This document shows positions 3,536 to 29,365 of a stretch of DNA of 40,159 nt, piece by piece. Numbering within the stretch: position 1 is the first letter of the stretch; every line of letters begins with the position of its first letter. The stretch lies in the sequence record OZ035815.1, one strand, 5' to 3'. The stretch is from Kayfunavirus MT1B1P3. Position numbers and translations under genes: made by a program. The notes under the pieces were generated by a model. It was not told the origin of the DNA, ran no database searches, and saw only the letters and a list, made by a program, of their open reading frames with translations.

Positions 3536-3538
3536 ACA

Positions 3539-3662
3539 CCTACAGTCTCACTAACCTACAGTCTCACTAACCTACAGTCTCACTAACCTACAGTCTCACT
3601 AACCTACAGTCTCACTAACCTACAGTCTCACTAACCTACAGTCTCACTAACCTACAGTCTCA
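3539..3662. repeat. tandem array of a 16-bp unit (cctacagtctcactaa), 7 full copies plus one partial
   Basis: counted directly: units at 3539, 3555, 3571, 3587, 3603, 3619, 3635 and a partial at 3651-3662; analogous in position to the T7 short-repeat array next to the terminal repeat. Confidence 0.9.
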
Positions 3663-6488: not shown

Positions 6489-9170
6489 ATGAGCGTCATC
6501 TCTATTGATAAACACGACTTCTCTGATGTGTCGAACGCCATTGAGCCGTTTAACCTGCTGGCTGACCACTACGGGAAGGACCTTGCAGTCAAGCAGCTTC
6601 AGCTTGAGCATGAGGCATACACTGAAGGCGAGCGACGTTTCATCAAAAACCTTGAGCGACAGACTGAGCGCGGGGAACTGGCAGACAATCAGGTCGCCAA
6701 GCCTTTGATGCAGACTCTGGTTCCTAAGATTGCGCAAGCCGTCAGGGAGTGGTATGAAGGTCCAGACGGGAAGCTTTCAACCTCTCGTCCTAGCGTAGCG
6801 TTCACCATGTTAAGCACCGAAGAGAAGGCCGTCAAGGACCGCTCTCTGCGTATCCCTTGCGAGTCTGCTGCGGTCATCATACTGAAGGTCATACTCTCCA
6901 AGCTGGTAAAGCCTGAAGGGATACCGATTACACCGATGGCCTCCGCGATAGGTCGCACACTTGAGGACGAAATCCGCTTCGGTCGCATCCGTGACAAAGA
7001 GAAAGAGCACTTCAAGAAGGCGATAGCTGATAACCTGAATAAGCGGGCCGGGGCGTCCTACAAGAAAGCCTACATGCAAGCGGTCGAGACATCCATGCTG
7101 GAGCAAGGCCAACTGGAAGATGCGTGGGGAACTTGGAGTCCTACAGAGGCTGTCCACGTTGGCATCAAGATGCTTGAGATTGTCATCCAGTCAACACAAC
7201 TGGTCGAGCTTAAGCGGTACGGTGCTGGCAATGCAGCGGCTGACGTAGAGATGGTCCACCTGTCAGACTTCTGGGTCAAGAAGATGGCACAACGAGGATT
7301 CAGCCTTGCGGGTATAGCTCCAGTCTACCAGCCTTGCGTCGTTCCACCTAAGCCGTGGACTGGTGTCGTAGGTGGTGGGTACTGGGCCAAAGGTCGCAGA
7401 CCGCTACCCCTGATTCGCTTAGGGTCTAAATCAGCGGTGGCACGTTATGAAGACGTATACATGCCTGAAGTCTATGACGCTGTGAATATCATCCAGAATA
7501 CACCTTGGAAAGTGAACAAGAAGGTACTGGACGTGGTGAACATGGTCGAGAAGTTGAACAACACGCCTATTGATGACATCCCTCAGATGGAGCCACTGAA
7601 GCCTGAAGACTATGCGGGTGAGACTGAGGAGGAACTCAAGGCATGGAAGAAGGCTGCTGCTGGTATCTATCGCCGCGAGAAGGCCCGACAGTCGCGAAGA
7701 TTGTCACTGAGCTTTATCGTTAACCAAGCGAACAAGTTCTCTCAGTTCAAGGCCATCTGGTTCCCGTACAACATGGACTGGCGTGGGCGCGTCTACGCTG
7801 TTCCGATGTTCAACCCTCAGGGTAACGACATGCAGAAAGGTCTCCTTACTCTGGCAGTCGGTAAGCCTATTGGTGCTGACGGTTTCAAATGGCTGAAGGT
7901 CCATGGTGCAAACTGCGCGGGTGTTGATAAAGTCACCTTCGAGGAGCGCATCAAGTGGGTGGAAGACAACCACGACAACATTATGGCTGCTGCTAAGGCA
8001 CCGATGGATAGCATTGAGTGGTGGGGCAAGTTAGACTCTCCGTTCTGCTTCCTTGCGTTCTGCTTCGAGTATGCTGGTGTAATGCACCACGGATTGTCTT
8101 ACTCCTGCTCATTACCGATAGCGTTCGATGGGTCATGCTCAGGGATTCAGCACTTTAGCGCGATGCTTCGTGATCACATAGGTGGACATGCAGTAAACCT
8201 AACGCCTTCCGGTAAGGTCCAAGACATCTACCGAATCGTGTCCGACCGCATTGAGGAAGAGCTTAAAGTCCTGCTGGTTAACGGCACAGACAACGAGATG
8301 GTAACTCACGAGGACAAGAAAACTGGTGAGATTACCGAACGCCTCAAGCTGGGGACACGAGAGCTGGCCCGGCAGTGGCTGACTTACGGCATGTCACGCA
8401 AGGTCACTAAGCGTTCAGTAATGACTCTGGCCTATGGGTCGAAAGAGTACGGCTTCGCAGACCAAGTTTATGAGGACATCGTGATGCCGGCGATTGACTC
8501 AGGGTCTGGCGCTATGTTCACCGAACCAAGCCAAGCGTCCCGCTTCATGGCTAAGATGATTTGGGAAGCTGTGAGCGTGACCGTAGTTGCTGCGGTTGAC
8601 GCGATGAAGTGGCTTCAGGGTGCTGCCAAGCTGCTGGCTGCTGAAGTGAAGGACAAGAAGACTGGAGAAATACTGAAGCCTTGCCTTCCGGTACACTGGG
8701 TAACACCTGATGGTTTCCCGGTCTGGCAGGAATACCGCAAGAAGGATACCACTCGTCTGAATCTGATGTTCTTAGGGTCATTCAACCTTCAGCCTACGGT
8801 CAACAAAGGCACGAAGAAAGAGCTGGACAAGCACAAGCAGGAGTCAGGCATTAGCCCGAACTTCGTCCACTCACAAGATGGTAGCCACCTACGCAAGACT
8901 GTAGTCCACACGCACCGCAAGTATGGCGTGATGTCCTTCGCAGTGATTCACGATAGCTTCGGGACCATCCCGGCTGACGCTGAGTATCTGTTCCGTGGCG
9001 TCCGTGAGACGATGGTCGAGACCTACCGCGATAACGATGTGCTGCTTGACTTCTACGAGCAGTTTGAATACCAGCTTCACGAGAGCCAGCGCGACAAGTT
9101 GCCTGAGCTTCCGAAGAAAGGTAAACTGAATATCGAAGACATCTTGTCTTCAGACTTTGCATTCGCGTAA
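6489..9170 (+). CDS. 1: DNA-directed RNA polymerase, single-subunit (T7 gp1-like)
   Basis: 893-aa ORF; conserved T7 RNAP blocks recognised (TLAYGSKEYGF, PNFVHSQDGSHLRKTVV, VIHDSFGT, final FAFA); size matches T7 RNAP (883 aa). Confidence 0.97.
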   Translation: MSVISIDKHDFSDVSNAIEPFNLLADHYGKDLAVKQLQLEHEAYTEGERRFIKNLERQTERGELADNQVAKPLMQTLVPKIAQAVREWYEGPDGKLSTSRPSVAFTMLSTEEKAVKDRSLRIPCESAAVIILKVILSKLVKPEGIPITPMASAIGRTLEDEIRFGRIRDKEKEHFKKAIADNLNKRAGASYKKAYMQAVETSMLEQGQLEDAWGTWSPTEAVHVGIKMLEIVIQSTQLVELKRYGAGNAAADVEMVHLSDFWVKKMAQRGFSLAGIAPVYQPCVVPPKPWTGVVGGGYWAKGRRPLPLIRLGSKSAVARYEDVYMPEVYDAVNIIQNTPWKVNKKVLDVVNMVEKLNNTPIDDIPQMEPLKPEDYAGETEEELKAWKKAAAGIYRREKARQSRRLSLSFIVNQANKFSQFKAIWFPYNMDWRGRVYAVPMFNPQGNDMQKGLLTLAVGKPIGADGFKWLKVHGANCAGVDKVTFEERIKWVEDNHDNIMAAAKAPMDSIEWWGKLDSPFCFLAFCFEYAGVMHHGLSYSCSLPIAFDGSCSGIQHFSAMLRDHIGGHAVNLTPSGKVQDIYRIVSDRIEEELKVLLVNGTDNEMVTHEDKKTGEITERLKLGTRELARQWLTYGMSRKVTKRSVMTLAYGSKEYGFADQVYEDIVMPAIDSGSGAMFTEPSQASRFMAKMIWEAVSVTVVAAVDAMKWLQGAAKLLAAEVKDKKTGEILKPCLPVHWVTPDGFPVWQEYRKKDTTRLNLMFLGSFNLQPTVNKGTKKELDKHKQESGISPNFVHSQDGSHLRKTVVHTHRKYGVMSFAVIHDSFGTIPADAEYLFRGVRETMVETYRDNDVLLDFYEQFEYQLHESQRDKLPELPKKGKLNIEDILSSDFAFA

Positions 9171-9644: not shown

Positions 9645-9720
9645 CAGACCTACAGTCACTGGCCTTGTGGCTAGGAGCACTCGCAGTATTCACTTTAATC
9701 CAACGCAGAAGAGGTTAACC

Positions 9721-9740
9721 CTAAACTATCACTATAGGAT
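9721..9740 (+). promoter_or_regulatory. phage RNAP promoter (phi1.1-like)
   Basis: ctaaactatcactataggat matches consensus. Confidence 0.65.
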
Positions 9741-9785
9741 TAGACTCAAGGTCATGACTCAAAGTCGTGGCCTTCATGATTAACC
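9741..9785 (+). promoter_or_regulatory. putative RNase III site (R1.1-like)
   Basis: tagactcaaggtcat...gtggccttcatgattaacc; resembles T7 R1.1 (aaggtcaatgagtggcctttatgattgacctt) from memory. Confidence 0.4.
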
Positions 9786-9815
9786 TTAAATAAACACTAC
9801 TGGAGATTTAACCAC

Positions 9816-15059: not shown

Positions 15060-16939
<1,880 letters not shown>

Positions 16940-16940
16940 G

Positions 16941-16985
16941 TCTAGACTCAAGGTCATTCACAGCGAGTGGCCTTTATGATTAGAC
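16941..16985 (+). promoter_or_regulatory. putative RNase III site upstream of DNA polymerase
   Basis: tctagactcaaggtcat...agtggcctttatgattagac, third copy of the conserved motif. Confidence 0.4.
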
Positions 16986-23814: not shown

Positions 23815-24699
23815 ATGTCTCAATCAGTTTATGCCGAGTTCGGCGTTAGCTCTAATGCAATCACTGGTTCCGTTGAGGACCTGAACGAACACCAGAAGTC
23901 TATGCTTGAACAGGACGTAGCTGTTCGTGATGGCGATGACGCTATTACCTTCAAGCAACTGGAAGCCGAAAACGAAGAGGCGACCGAAGAAGACGAAAAC
24001 GTCGAAGAGACTGAAGGTGAAGAAGACCACGAGTCAGATGACGAAGAGTCTGAGACAGATGGTGAGCAACCTGAGTTCGTAGAACTTGGTGATGCACCTA
24101 AAGAGCTGACCGAAAGTGTCACCGCTCTGGATGAAAACGAAGCTGCATTTGACGACATGGTGTCTTCTGCTGTAGAAGCCGGCAAGGTCACTGCTGATGA
24201 AATTACCGCTATCAAGGCTGAATACGCCAAGGACGGTAAGCTGTCTGACGCATCCTACGCTAAGTTGCAGGAAGCAGGTTACACCAAGCGTTTCGTAGAT
24301 TCGTTTGTCCGTGGTCAGGAAGCTCTGGCTGAACAGTATGCTGCTGGTGTGGTTCGCTACGCTGGCGGAGCTGAACAGTTTAATCGCATCCTGTCACACC
24401 TTGAGTCCAACGACCCATCAACTCGTGAAGCACTGGAAGCTGCTATCGTTCGTAAGGACATTGCGACTACCAAAGCTCTGCTGAATCTGGCTGGCAAGAC
24501 TCTGGGTAAAGCTGTGGGTGTTAAACCTCAGCGTACCATCACCACTCAGGCTAAACCTGTGGTCGCACCTAAGGCTCCTCAGACCGAAGCATTCAGCTCC
24601 AAGGCTGACATGATTAAGGCCATGAGTGACCCGCGATACCTGCGTGACGCTAAATACACTATGGAAGTTCGCGCTAAGGTAGCTGCCTCAAGCCTGTAG
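23815..24699 (+). CDS. 9: capsid assembly scaffolding protein (T7 gp9-like)
   Basis: highly acidic Glu/Asp-rich protein between portal and major capsid; ATG at 23815 with SD aaggag; ORF track starts at upstream GTG 23779. Confidence 0.85.
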   Translation: MSQSVYAEFGVSSNAITGSVEDLNEHQKSMLEQDVAVRDGDDAITFKQLEAENEEATEEDENVEETEGEEDHESDDEESETDGEQPEFVELGDAPKELTESVTALDENEAAFDDMVSSAVEAGKVTADEITAIKAEYAKDGKLSDASYAKLQEAGYTKRFVDSFVRGQEALAEQYAAGVVRYAGGAEQFNRILSHLESNDPSTREALEAAIVRKDIATTKALLNLAGKTLGKAVGVKPQRTITTQAKPVVAPKAPQTEAFSSKADMIKAMSDPRYLRDAKYTMEVRAKVAASSL

Positions 24700-24701
24700 G
24701 A

Positions 24702-24723
24702 CTAAACTATCACTATAGGGAGA
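24702..24723 (+). promoter_or_regulatory. phage RNAP promoter (phi10-like, full consensus)
   Basis: ctaaactatcactatagggaga, identical to T7 consensus from -7 to +6 (CACTATAGGGAGA). Confidence 0.7.
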
Positions 24724-26000: not shown

Positions 26001-26004
26001 TTGA

Positions 26005-26043
26005 AACCCCTTGGGTGCCTTCGGGTGCTTGAGGGGTTTTTTG
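26005..26043 (+). terminator. phage RNAP terminator (Tphi-like) after capsid gene
   Basis: aaccccttgggtgccttcgggtgcttgaggggttttttg: GC-rich hairpin plus T-run, very similar to recalled T7 Tphi. Confidence 0.8.
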
Positions 26044-26057
26044 CTTAAGGAGGTACT

Positions 26058-26147
26058 ATGGTCCTTATTTACACAGGGTTAGCACTATTCGTCTTATTCT
26101 GGGCGTACCTGCTGTCCAGCTCACCGTCTAGCGCCTATGACCGTTAA
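26058..26147 (+). CDS. possible small hydrophobic protein (29 aa)
   Basis: hand-translated MVLIYTGLALFVLFWAYLLSSSPSSAYDR; SD aaggagg 6 nt upstream; below ORF-track cutoff. Confidence 0.25.
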   Translation: MVLIYTGLALFVLFWAYLLSSSPSSAYDR

Positions 26148-26158
26148 GGAGTAAACCT

Positions 26159-26725
26159 ATGGCTCAATACATTCCACTGAATGCTAACGATGACTTAGAC
26201 GCCATCAACGATATGTTAGCTGCTATCGGTGAACCAGCAGTCCTACAGCTTGACGAGGGGAACGCTGACGTCTCGAACGCTCAACGTATCCTGCATCGTG
26301 TCAATCGTCAGGTCCAAGCTAAAGGCTGGAACTTTAATATCAATGAAGCTGCTGTCCTGACACCTGATGTCCAAGACAATAGGATTCGATTCTTGCCGTC
26401 ATACCTTCGCGTAATGACCGCTGGGGCCACCAGCTACTACAGCAACATGGGTGGATACCTGTACGACCTATCCACTCAGTCAACCACTTTCACCGACCCC
26501 ATCACGGTAGAGCTTGTGGAGATGAAGCCATTCTCCGAGATGCCTGTGGTCTTCAGGGACTACATCGTCACTAAAGCTAGCCGTGAGTTCAACGCTAAGT
26601 TCTTCGGTAGCCCAGAGTCAGAGCTATACCTTCGTGAGCAGGAAGCAGAACTCTATCAGCAGGTTATGGAGTACGAGATGGACACTGGTCGCTACAACAT
26701 GATGTCTGACATCGGGAGGGACTAA
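26159..26725 (+). CDS. 11: tail tubular protein A (T7 gp11-like)
   Basis: recalled similarity to T7 gp11 (AIGEP.V..L......D...A.RIL...NRQ.Q..GW.FN, YEMD.G.YNM). Confidence 0.9.
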   Translation: MAQYIPLNANDDLDAINDMLAAIGEPAVLQLDEGNADVSNAQRILHRVNRQVQAKGWNFNINEAAVLTPDVQDNRIRFLPSYLRVMTAGATSYYSNMGGYLYDLSTQSTTFTDPITVELVEMKPFSEMPVVFRDYIVTKASREFNAKFFGSPESELYLREQEAELYQQVMEYEMDTGRYNMMSDIGRD

Positions 26726-26952
26726 TGGCTAGTCACAACCTGAAGATTCACCGCCAGCACTTTGGTCCGGTACAACTAGGTCTAAAGACAGCAGAGCTGA
26801 GACTTAACGACCGGGACTTTAAGGTTGGCGATTGGCTTATCCTGAATGAGTGGGACAACGGGTATACTGGACAACAGGTAGCACGTAAGGTTGTCCACAT
26901 TGCTGACGTTGGTGACATCGCTGAGGGATACGTCCTAATGAGTATGATTTAA
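26725..26952 (+). CDS. small ASCH/DUF3850-like protein inserted between tail tubular genes
   Basis: 75 aa; HFGPVQLGLKTAELRLNDRDFKVGDWLILNEW resembles the DUF3850/ASCH pattern (recalled); T7 has no gene between 11 and 12. Confidence 0.5.
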   Translation: MASHNLKIHRQHFGPVQLGLKTAELRLNDRDFKVGDWLILNEWDNGYTGQQVARKVVHIADVGDIAEGYVLMSMI

Positions 26953-26961
26953 GGAGGGCCT

Positions 26962-29319
26962 ATGCCACTAATTACTCAATCAATCAAGAACCTTAAAGGT
27001 GGTATTAGCCAGCAGCCAGACATACTGAGGTTCTCAGACCAAGGCGAAGCACAAGTTAACTGCTGGTCATCCGAGAGTGATGGCCTCCAGAAGCGCCCAC
27101 CTACAGTCTTCAAGCGACGTCTTAACATCGACGTTGGAAGCAACCCTAAGTTCCACCTGATTAACCGTGATGAGCAGGAGCAGTATTACATCGTGTTCAA
27201 TGGGTCAAACATTCAGGTAGTTGACTTGAGTGGTAATCAATACGCAGTGTCAGGTTCGGTAGACTACGTTAAGTCCTCCAACCCACGAGATGACATCCGT
27301 GTCGTTACCGTGGCAGACTATACGTTCGTCGTTAACCGTAAGGTTGTCGTCAAAGGTGGAAGCGAGAAGTCACACTCTGGTTATAACCGCAAAGCACGAG
27401 CTTTAATTAACCTACGTGGTGGACAGTATGGTCGAACCCTTAAGGTGGGAATCAACGGTGGCGTTAAGGTCTCGCATAAGCTACCAGCAGGTAATGATGC
27501 CGAGAATGACCCGCCTAAGGTGGACGCTCAAGCCATTGGTGCAGCTCTGAGAGACCTTCTTGTTACTGCCTACCCTACCTTCACGTTTGACCTTGGGTCT
27601 GGATTCCTGCTAATCACAGCTCCTTCAGGGACCGATATTAACTCAGTGGAGACGGAGGATGGCTACGCTAACCAGCTAATAAGCCCAGTCCTAGACACTG
27701 TGCAGACAATCTCTAAACTACCTCTTGCCGCTCCTAATGGGTATATCATTAAGATTCAAGGTGAGACAAACAGTAGCGCCGATGAATACTACGTGATGTA
27801 TGACTCCAACACTAAGACGTGGAAGGAGACAGTGGAGCCGGGAGTTGTCACTGGGTTCGATAACACCACAATGCCACACGCTCTGGTACGACAATCTGAT
27901 GGCTCCTTTGAGTTCAAGGCTCTGGACTGGTCTAAGCGTGGTGCTGGTAATGATGACACAAGCCCTATGCCTAGCTTCGTGGATGCTACGATTAACGATG
28001 TGTTCTTCTACAGGAACAGGCTAGGGTTCTTGTCAGGCGAGAACGTAATCATGAGCCGTTCAGCAAGCTACTTTGCGTTCTTCCCTAAGAGTGTGGCGAC
28101 ACTGAGTGATGATGACCCTATTGATGTAGCTGTAAGTCACCCTAGAATCTCAATCCTTAAGTATGCCGTTCCGTTTAGCGAGCAGCTACTACTTTGGTCA
28201 GATGAAGTGCAGTTCGTGATGACAAGCTCAGGGGTCCTTACCTCGAAGTCTATCCAGCTTGATGTAGGCTCAGAGTTTGCCTTAGGAGATAATGCCAGAC
28301 CGTTCGCTGTAGGACGCTCAGTCTTCTTCTCAGCGCCTCGTGGGTCATTCACCAGCATTAAGCGATACTTCGCTGTAGCAGATGTGTCTGACGTGAAGGA
28401 TGCCGATGATACCACTGGTCACGTACTATCCTATATCCCTAACGGGGTGTTTGACATTCAGGGAACAGGGACTGAGAACTACATCTGCGTCAACTCTACA
28501 GGTGCATACAACCGAATCTACCTCTACAAGTTCTTGTTTAAGGACGGCGTACAGCTTCAAGCCTCTTGGTCTCACTGGGAGTTCCCTAAAGCTGATAAGA
28601 TTCTGGCGTCTGCGTCGATTGGCTCTACCATGTTCATTGTTCGTCAGCACCAAGGCGGCGTGGACCTTGAGCACCTTAAGTTCATCAAGGAGGCAACTGA
28701 CTTTCCATCAGAGCCGTATAGACTCCACGTTGACTCCAAGGTGTCTATGGTCATCCCAATTGGCTCGTTTAATGCTGACACATATAAGACTACGGTTGAC
28801 ATTGGTGCTGCTTATGGTGGTAATGCTCCGTCTCCCGGTCGGTACTATCTGATTGACAGTCAGGGTGCTTATTTGGACCTTGGGGACTTGACCAGTATCT
28901 CTACTGTGATTACCCTCAACGGCGATTGGTCAGGACGTACAGTGTTCATCGGGCGGCCCTATCTGATGTCCTACAAGTTCTCACGGTTCCTGATTAAGAT
29001 TGAAGATGATAGTGGCACTCAGTCTGAAGACACTGGTCGTCTACAGCTTCGTCGGGCTTGGGTCAACTACAAGGACACTGGCGCTCTGAGACTCATTGTC
29101 AGAAACGGTGAGCGAGAGTTCGTTAACACCTTTAATGGGTACACACTTGGTCAGCAGACCATAGGGACTACTAACATTGGTGACGGGCAGTATCGCTTCG
29201 CTATGAATGGTAACGCATTAACCACGAGTCTAACCTTAGAGTCCGACTATCCTACCCCAGTGTCAATCGTTGGATGTGGCTGGGAGGCGTCATACGCTAA
29301 GAAAGCTCGTTCCGTCTAA
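26962..29319 (+). CDS. 12: tail tubular protein B (T7 gp12-like)
   Basis: 785 aa (T7 gp12 794 aa); conserved position after gene 11; N-terminus MPLITQSIKNLKGGISQQP. Confidence 0.9.
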   Translation: MPLITQSIKNLKGGISQQPDILRFSDQGEAQVNCWSSESDGLQKRPPTVFKRRLNIDVGSNPKFHLINRDEQEQYYIVFNGSNIQVVDLSGNQYAVSGSVDYVKSSNPRDDIRVVTVADYTFVVNRKVVVKGGSEKSHSGYNRKARALINLRGGQYGRTLKVGINGGVKVSHKLPAGNDAENDPPKVDAQAIGAALRDLLVTAYPTFTFDLGSGFLLITAPSGTDINSVETEDGYANQLISPVLDTVQTISKLPLAAPNGYIIKIQGETNSSADEYYVMYDSNTKTWKETVEPGVVTGFDNTTMPHALVRQSDGSFEFKALDWSKRGAGNDDTSPMPSFVDATINDVFFYRNRLGFLSGENVIMSRSASYFAFFPKSVATLSDDDPIDVAVSHPRISILKYAVPFSEQLLLWSDEVQFVMTSSGVLTSKSIQLDVGSEFALGDNARPFAVGRSVFFSAPRGSFTSIKRYFAVADVSDVKDADDTTGHVLSYIPNGVFDIQGTGTENYICVNSTGAYNRIYLYKFLFKDGVQLQASWSHWEFPKADKILASASIGSTMFIVRQHQGGVDLEHLKFIKEATDFPSEPYRLHVDSKVSMVIPIGSFNADTYKTTVDIGAAYGGNAPSPGRYYLIDSQGAYLDLGDLTSISTVITLNGDWSGRTVFIGRPYLMSYKFSRFLIKIEDDSGTQSEDTGRLQLRRAWVNYKDTGALRLIVRNGEREFVNTFNGYTLGQQTIGTTNIGDGQYRFAMNGNALTTSLTLESDYPTPVSIVGCGWEASYAKKARSV

Positions 29320-29344
29320 CTTATTGAAGGGCCTATAGATTTAC

Positions 29345-29365
29345 CTTAACTATCACTATAGGGAC
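29345..29365 (+). promoter_or_regulatory. phage RNAP promoter (phi13-like)
   Basis: cttaactatcactatagggac; sits inside a 12-bp inverted repeat. Confidence 0.65.

Follow-up and report, generated by a model that had tools for sequence, protein, structure and literature searches.

Why does a T7-like phage carry a 75-codon gene between two genes of its tail, and what might that gene do? The question is raised by the window analysed here, a stretch of 40,159 nucleotides from Kayfunavirus MT1B1P3 (OZ035815.1), in which an earlier note had placed a small ORF at 26725-26952, between genes 11 and 12. All of these coordinates are right, as is the premise that the two genes are neighbours in T7: in T7 and the other sampled Studiervirinae the corresponding span measures ~620-630 nt and just two tail genes are annotated in it. 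Our analysis firmly establishes the ORF as a real, selected, dispensable and genus-specific accessory gene, which encodes a minimal DUF3850/ASCH barrel within the late tail operon.

The locus is well represented in public records. A 1-kb query (26100-27100) finds full identity (100%) in Escherichia phage Mt1B1_P3 (MT496969) and vB_EcoA_ASO2B, and identities of 93-99% in many Kayfunavirus genomes (K1F-like; Autographiviridae, Studiervirinae). Proteins 100% identical to the product of the ORF are deposited, for example from PE3-1 and Pkp-1, so the gene itself is already on public record, as is its DUF3850 assignment; the labels in use are 'hypothetical protein', 'RNA-binding protein' and 'DUF3850 domain-containing protein'. 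For the window, our result is mostly a tidy-up of a gene that is real, rightly assigned to DUF3850 and already in GenBank. What is new here is the pattern of presence and absence, the exact bounds of a 237-bp cassette, an estimate of selection, and the mapping of the motif onto newly characterised ASCH enzymes.

Layout and transcription of the 11/12 region

Relative to the usual T7-type map, the window is circularly permuted: gp18.5 lies at 395-844, the terminase gene at 841-2604 and the RNA polymerase gene at 6489-9170. Gene 11, tail tubular protein A (gatekeeper), occupies 26159-26725 on the plus strand (Pfam Tube, E=3.6e-46), and gene 12, tail tubular protein B (nozzle), occupies 26962-29319 on the same strand (Pfam Phage_nozzle, E=0), with gp13 next in line. 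Between them, the DUF3850/ASCH-fold gene (26725-26952, plus strand) runs from an ATG start to a TAA stop and encodes a protein of 75 aa and 8.5 kDa with a pI of 6.4. The TAA stop of gene 11 (26723-26725) and the ATG of the ORF (26725-26727) have one A in common, in the context …GGGAGGGACTAATGGCT…. A Shine-Dalgarno motif for the ORF, GGGAGGG (26714-26720, plus strand), lies within the 3' end of gene 11, 4 nt before the ATG; in K1F and ZG49 the same motif is the direct Shine-Dalgarno of gene 12. After the TAA of the ORF comes AAGGAGGGCCT and then the ATG of gene 12, whose own Shine-Dalgarno in the window, AAGGAGG (26951-26957, plus strand), is found at the 3' end of the cassette. This cassette, the 237 bp missing in K1F and ZG49 (26728-26964, plus strand), is flanked by the near-repeat GGGAGGGACTAATG / AGGAGGGCCTATG, each copy of which holds one Shine-Dalgarno and one start codon.

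The nearest upstream promoter of the phage RNA polymerase is the one before gene 10 (phi10; 24699-24721, plus strand; consensus …CTAAACTATCACTATAGGGA), and the next one downstream is at the phi13 position before gene 13 (29342-29364, plus strand). No phage promoter was found between 24721 and 29342; sigma-70-like matches stayed at the level of shuffled sequence, with none within 26386-27691, and no terminator was found after the ORF. A Tphi-like GC-rich hairpin followed by a T-run (26004-26044, plus strand) comes after gene 10. Genes 11, the ORF and 12 all lie downstream of this hairpin, so they are predicted to be transcribed by read-through. In T7, transcription of genes 11 and 12 by terminator read-through is established. 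Given the TAATG overlap, translation of the ORF would be coupled to that of gene 11 in a late operon.

These features bear on the proposal that the arrangement is moron-like, which stands in part. The gene is present in some phages and missing from close relatives, a patchy presence between two conserved genes as expected of a moron, but it is coupled to gene 11 and, unlike a classical moron, has neither promoter nor terminator to itself. A fusion with gene 12 by read-through or frameshift was also considered and rejected. The two frames agree here (237 nt apart), but this relation is not kept in the relative L014, where the spacing is 239 nt; a TGA precedes the ATG by 5 codons in the frame of the ORF, and no slippery site is evident.

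Several other features of the window were recorded in passing. An unannotated, hydrophobic mini-ORF of 29 aa (MVLIYTGLALFVLFWAYLLSSSPSSAYDR) with a strong Shine-Dalgarno (TAAGGAGG) lies at 26058-26147 on the plus strand, between the Tphi-like hairpin and gene 11, and variants of it are conserved in ZG49 and in three further relatives (L008, L010 and L012). Other Kayfunaviruses have a different ORF of 64-87 aa in the 10-11 spacer ('gp10.1' of Dev2; also L004, L007, L014 and Kc166A), and that of L006 holds a 74-aa Cys/His-rich ORF that by eye is like an HNH or EndoVII-type nuclease. With such varied small ORFs, the spacer between genes 10 and 11 forms a second mosaic site that takes up small accessory genes. 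A 16-nt unit (ACCTACAGTCTCACTA) is repeated perfectly in tandem, 7.8 times over, at 3538-3662, in the interval that separates the terminase end of the map from the early region. We take this interval to be the expected place of the physical genome end and terminal repeat of a T7-like phage. An element of ~50 nt (TTAGACTCAAGGTCAT…GTGGCCTT.ATG.TTAAC) occurs three times (297-349, 9740-9792 and 16937-16982), one copy directly after the phage promoter at 9718-9740; by analogy with the R sites of T7, these elements are possibly RNase III-type processing hairpins.

A minimal DUF3850 barrel

The resemblance to the DUF3850/ASCH family proposed in the earlier note is backed by profile, structure and motif alike. 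The protein matches Pfam DUF3850 (PF12961) over its full length, residues 4-73 aligning to positions 2-76 of a 77-position profile (70.1 bits against a cutoff of 22.9, E=1.9e-19), and Pfam ASCH (PF04266) at 26.2 bits against a cutoff of 21.2, over profile positions 2-61 of 103 only. PHROG 986, named 'RNA-binding protein', is matched at E=2.8e-35; a search of NCBIfam with the 75-aa protein gave no match. By sequence the sole solved relative found is 3IUW (E=1.2e-10 from the single sequence, 4.6e-19 from a profile). The AF2 model (pLDDT 85.4) is a beta-barrel of six strands, with a single helix (residues 10-17) following strand 1, and its fold superposes on 3IUW.

A word-indexed protein search returned just 31 close homologues, and the size of the family was revealed by an exhaustive profile search, with the Kayfunavirus and related copies, of 1.84 billion representatives of clusters at 50% identity: 16,078 clusters were matched at E<=1e-3 and 5,282 at E<=1e-10. 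Among the best 149 of the 16,078 clusters, K21, E24, R26, D29 and R30 are invariant, and H4, L6, K7, V16, G19, N28, G35, D36, L38, L40, E42, Y69, V70 and S73 are at least 90% conserved. The window protein has all five invariant residues, and with them the DUF3850 motif K-x-x-E-x-R-x-(N)-D-R. In the protein these form part of the ASCH octapeptide G19-L-K21-T-A-E24-L-R26, followed by N28-D29-R30.

The correspondence with characterised ASCH enzymes is partial. In hhalign, G19, K21, E24 and R26 fall on G19, K21, T24 and R26 of YqfB, in a weak match (probability 21%, E=0.001). From the catalytic set of that enzyme (Lys21/Thr24/Arg26/Glu74) the phage protein has K21 and R26, position 24 is a Glu, and a counterpart of Glu74 is missing because the protein is too short; it stops at residue 75, before the C-terminal helical part of a complete ASCH domain. 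The Lys-Glu dyad of the GKER-type ASCH deacetylases is there as K21 and E24, by sequence only.

The RNA-binding role that the earlier note attached to the family fared less well. With a pI of 6.4 and a net charge of -1.1 the protein is weakly acidic, like many of its kin (pI below 7 in 17 of 27 standalone DUF3850 representatives), and the neighbours and fusion partners of the domain in other phages act on DNA. The name 'RNA-binding protein' is a transferred label and is therefore without backing here; a literature search combining Kayfunavirus with that name found nothing.

Presence and absence at the junction

The distribution of the gene was followed with a chimeric query (C-terminus of gp11, the ORF, N-terminus of gp12), and 60 records were sampled across the ranking. 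Genes 11 and 12 are adjacent in the sampled T7, T3-like, K11-like, Pseudomonas, Yersinia, Vibrio and other Studiervirinae. All 6 sampled records with a high-identity ORF between the two genes are Kayfunavirus-like, and the two whose taxonomy was checked belong to Kayfunavirus. In this sample of T7-like records the DUF3850 gene is genus-specific.

Within the genus, roughly 160-180 records bear the ORF and about 50 lack it, with three types of junction. In the K1F type (16 records) TAATG leads straight into gene 12; the ZG49 type (8-9 records) is arranged in the same way on another 5' haplotype of gene 12; and the Dev2 type (25 records) has an 11-nt spacer, TAGGAGGTGAT, that resembles the spacer between the ORF and gene 12 in the ORF-bearing L014. 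The gp11 proteins of the ORF-less phages (K1F, ZG49, the Dev2 group and others) show 97-100% identity, and those of K1F and ZG49 are 100% identical to gp11 of the window, with gp12 N-termini at 98-99%. The gene is dispensable, since close relatives do without it, and these ~50 records therefore mark it as an accessory gene and not part of the virion. A virion component conserved in all relatives, one of the findings that the earlier note had set as its own refutation, is thus not what we observe.

Phages with and without the ORF are intermixed on the trees of gp11 and gp12: the ORF-less LNA3 is the nearest relative of the window on the gp12 tree, the ORF-bearing AN24P4 is the sister of the ORF-less K1F on the gp11 tree, and the Dev2 clade also has ORF-bearing members, namely L014 and phage B1 (ORF40). 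The pattern amounts to at least two or three independent events. The position of the ORF and its TAATG junction are identical in L014 (85% identity) and in Kosakonia phage Kc166A (67%), and its divergence tracks that of gp12 (75% and 67%, respectively). Given the same site and junction in such diverged copies, the ORF is probably ancestral to the genus, and its presence in the ancestor followed by several losses or recombinational replacements is the most economical reading. As for mechanism, recombination between the near-repeats GGGAGGGACTAATG and AGGAGGGCCTATG would yield the exact K1F junction. The description of the gene as an insertion therefore needs a qualification: it is extra relative to T7, but the shared site in the 85% and 67% copies means that it is not a recent arrival.

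The reading frame is real well beyond chance and is under purifying selection, as dN/dS values of 0.10-0.13 across relatives indicate, though this selection is weaker than that on the two tail genes around it. Compared with 13 close copies, the ORF has a mean dN/dS of 0.127, gp11 one of 0.023 and the 5' part of gp12 one of 0.050; against the more distant L014 (dS 0.9) and Kc166A (dS 2.4), the values for the ORF are 0.12 and 0.10. Nucleotide diversity, in a small sample, is 0.030 in the ORF against 0.057 and 0.064 in its flanks. A comparison of 12 close relatives gave a like picture (0.02-0.03 in the ORF, scored over 26684-26909, against 0.04-0.10 in gp11 and gp12, with flanks spanning 26159-27860), and among close relatives the dS of the ORF, 0.10, is one third of the 0.27-0.30 of its neighbours. 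Such low diversity may mean that recombination spread the cassette more recently, or it may be no more than sampling noise.

Other genes have been placed at the same site. In Hafnia phage yong1 (L085, 2042-2482) a gene of the Endonuclease VII type directly follows the DUF3850 gene at the 11/12 junction; in Klebsiella phage KN4-1 (Przondovirus; L086, 1769-2302) such a gene is at the junction with no DUF3850; and in phage B1 a 158-aa ORF41 follows the DUF3850 homologue (PMC12785254). The 11/12 junction is an insertion hotspot.

What the pocket may act on

The earlier note had also stated that the function of this gene in phages is not established, and this holds, as no functional assay of the domain was found in the literature on DUF3850. 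Outside Kayfunavirus, we inspected 66 viral contigs with the domain. Most copies are standalone (75-118 aa), and ~20 are longer, some of these being fusions. Their commonest neighbours are P2 gpA-type (GPA) nickases, helicases, primases, NinB/NinG, several families of DNA methyltransferases and HNH/EndoVII endonucleases, and the 25 neighbour families listed as commonest for these loci include no virion or structural family. As the family keeps the company of replication, recombination and methylation genes, a site between tail genes is thus atypical for DUF3850. One contig (L028, 3530-4228; IMG/VR UViG_3300010261_000168) encodes a 232-aa fusion of a Dam-type N6-adenine DNA methyltransferase (E=1.8e-35) with a C-terminal DUF3850 domain (E=5.4e-28), and this fusion ties the domain directly and physically to DNA base modification; upstream of it is a gene for a NUMOD4/HNH endonuclease. 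Among the representatives, DUF551 is fused to DUF3850 in 12 of 149, and other fusions involve a dATP/dGTP pyrophosphohydrolase and LexA/HTH DNA-binding domains. Fusions of ParB-CTPase with DUF3850 are reported to be enriched in phages (10.1101/2025.10.10.680097).

Within Kayfunavirus, we searched for a partner gene in a pan-genome built from 16 complete genomes, 8 with the ORF and 8 without (120 clusters, 43 of them core). None of the 120 clusters has the distribution of DUF3850; the nearest is a doubtful 47-aa ORF present in 8/8 ORF-bearing and 2/8 ORF-less genomes. These 16 genomes gave no sign of a multi-gene system. PADLOC defence HMMs gave no significant match, the best being PDC-M07B (E=0.0073 over 34 residues). 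GATC and CCWGG are depleted 10-40-fold in all 16 Kayfunavirus genomes irrespective of ORF status: the window has 17 GATC against ~156 expected and 3 CCWGG against ~76, and Dev2 and EcpYZU01 have zero GATC.

The explanation that we prefer, at a probability of roughly 0.4, is that the gene encodes an 8.5-kDa, single-domain, non-structural accessory DUF3850 protein with a Lys/Glu/Arg pocket for a modified base, likely either a minimal amidohydrolase or a tight binder. As a best guess by analogy with ASCH enzymes, the pocket would bind or hydrolyse such a base. The protein would be made late, roughly in step with gp11, as the layout of the genes suggests, and would act alone, since no co-distributed partner gene was found. 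Its Lys/Glu/Arg (plus Asn-Asp-Arg) pocket would take a flipped-out or free modified base, most likely as a minimal Lys-Glu amidohydrolase and otherwise as a tight binder, with an N-acylated or N-alkylated cytosine or adenine as the target, either in polynucleotide form (host tRNA or DNA) or as a nucleoside. The protein would thereby tune the modification state of nucleic acid, which may matter in some hosts only, and would have no part in tail assembly.

Published enzymology both encourages and tempers this explanation. YqfB hydrolyses N4-acetylcytidine by means of K21, T24, R26 and E74 (PMC9599836). All 19 ASCH proteins tested in a recent preprint, 12 of them GKER-type, lowered ac4C in tRNA, and the Lys and Glu were essential in TthASCH, EOLA1 and TRIP4; the 19 included no DUF3850 or phage member (10.64898/2026.02.27.708502). 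Against the amidohydrolase, ZmASCH and the ASCH domain of TRIP4, both GKER-type, did not hydrolyse free ac4C nucleoside (10.64898/2026.02.27.708502), and the ASCH fold is put to other uses too: single-stranded RNA is cut by ZmASCH, and ASCH-like barrels occur in BapA, a 5hmC DNA glycosylase. The phage protein also lacks the C-terminal ASCH part that supplies the acid E74 of YqfB, its match to the ASCH profile is partial and its alignment to YqfB weak, and the genomic associations of the family point to DNA rather than tRNA. A bolder version of the proposal is improbable in our estimate. It would make these proteins the smallest ASCH-type amidohydrolases (75 aa, Lys-Glu dyad), serving as a phage counter-measure that strips N-acyl marks from the nucleic acid of host or phage, with the Kayfunavirus copy, made late beside virion genes, perhaps even packaged and delivered together with the DNA; if true, it would explain selection in most lineages together with loss in phages of some hosts.

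The DNA-centred neighbourhoods of the family keep a serious rival in play, one that we hold to be possible though rather unlikely: the protein may be a non-catalytic reader of modified DNA (e.g. N6-methyladenine), a small ASCH module that binds methylated DNA of host or phage and modulates replication, recombination, packaging or restriction. The Dam methyltransferase fusion, the phage-enriched ParB-CTPase fusions (10.1101/2025.10.10.680097), the LexA/HTH fusions and the replication, recombination and methyltransferase neighbours all fit such a reader, which is also in line with the modified-nucleic-acid binding that Iyer et al. predicted for ASCH domains fused to Dam or ParB (PMC4738411) and with the PUA-like relatives YTH, EVE and SRA, which are readers. 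The acidity of the protein and of 17/27 standalone representatives speaks against it, however, and at its invariant positions it has charged residues (K/E/R/D/R), the kind found in ASCH active sites, and no aromatic cage. The depletion of GATC and CCWGG is the same with or without the ORF, which says little about an m6A reader, and the annotation of Mt1B1_P3 (43 genes) lists no methyltransferase.

A structural role and a purely selfish one are both unlikely. The protein might be an assembly chaperone of gp11/gp12, a minor decoration, or a packaged protein ejected into the host, but we consider any such association with tail or virion very improbable. K1F and ZG49 build tails without the gene from an identical gp11 and a gp12 with a near-identical N-terminus, elsewhere DUF3850 belongs to replication modules, and ASCH matches far outscore hub matches. 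A virion protein of the T7 group would be expected in all builders of the same tail, and this gene is missing from T7, T3-like, K11-like and other sampled genera as well as from ~50 Kayfunavirus records. In phage B1, mass spectrometry of gel bands identified six large structural proteins and the 75-aa ORF40 was not reported, which is weak evidence because eight selected bands alone, from a 10-180 kDa gel, were analysed (PMC12785254); SH3, which has shotgun virion mass spectrometry, is without the DUF3850 gene. Published virion proteomics speak neither for nor against packaging. Least probable of all is a selfish or near-neutral passenger of no benefit to the phage, kept by recombination or by co-conversion with neighbouring homing endonucleases. 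The polymorphism among near-identical phages, the Endonuclease VII-type genes of yong1 and KN4-1 at the same junction, the 158-aa ORF after the B1 homologue and the halved nucleotide diversity of the ORF would suit a passenger, but not a dN/dS that stays at 0.10-0.13 even against a 67%-identical copy (dS above 2), nor the retention of every family-invariant residue, the identical position and junction in the 85% and 67% copies, and an ORF with no nuclease or recombinase motif.

Recent reports of ac4C deacetylation by ASCH proteins offer a concrete assay for DUF3850, and the Kayfunaviruses are easy-to-engineer T7-like genomes on E. coli hosts, with near-isogenic natural pairs with and without the gene (the window phage against K1F, LNA3 or ZG49). 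With such natural pairs the function is testable, and the interest for the family is higher than that of the locus. More widely, the gene opens a way into a DUF3850 family that is very large and enriched in phages, and in which an invariant, catalytic-looking K/E/R/D/R pocket is contained in 75 residues.

Comparison with known systems places the gene more precisely. T7 has the same flanking genes and the same late read-through unit, but in T7 and the other sampled Studiervirinae genera nothing lies between genes 11 and 12. The homing-endonuclease insertions of yong1 and KN4-1 occupy the same junction, whereas the DUF3850 gene is not a nuclease. The sole solved DUF3850 structure, 3IUW from Enterococcus faecalis V583 (83 aa, deposited as 'activating signal cointegrator'), differs in being a bacterial or prophage protein, solved in a structural-genomics project and encoded outside any tail operon. 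YqfB, the E. coli ASCH N4-acetylcytidine amidohydrolase (PDB 9KYF), is longer at 103 aa, has Thr24 where the phage protein has Glu24, and possesses a C-terminal part with the catalytic Glu74, both of which the 75-aa protein is without. The GKER-type proteins (TthASCH, EOLA1, the TRIP4 ASCH domain and ZmASCH) have G-x-K-x-x-E-x-R in common with the phage protein but are about 110-160 aa long with extra helices, and ZmASCH is a ribonuclease on single-stranded RNA. Finally, the ParB-CTPase- and Dam-DUF3850 fusions of phages and prophages contain the same domain with the same invariant residues; they are multi-domain proteins in partition, replication or methylation loci, whereas the Kayfunavirus protein is the bare domain in a structural operon.
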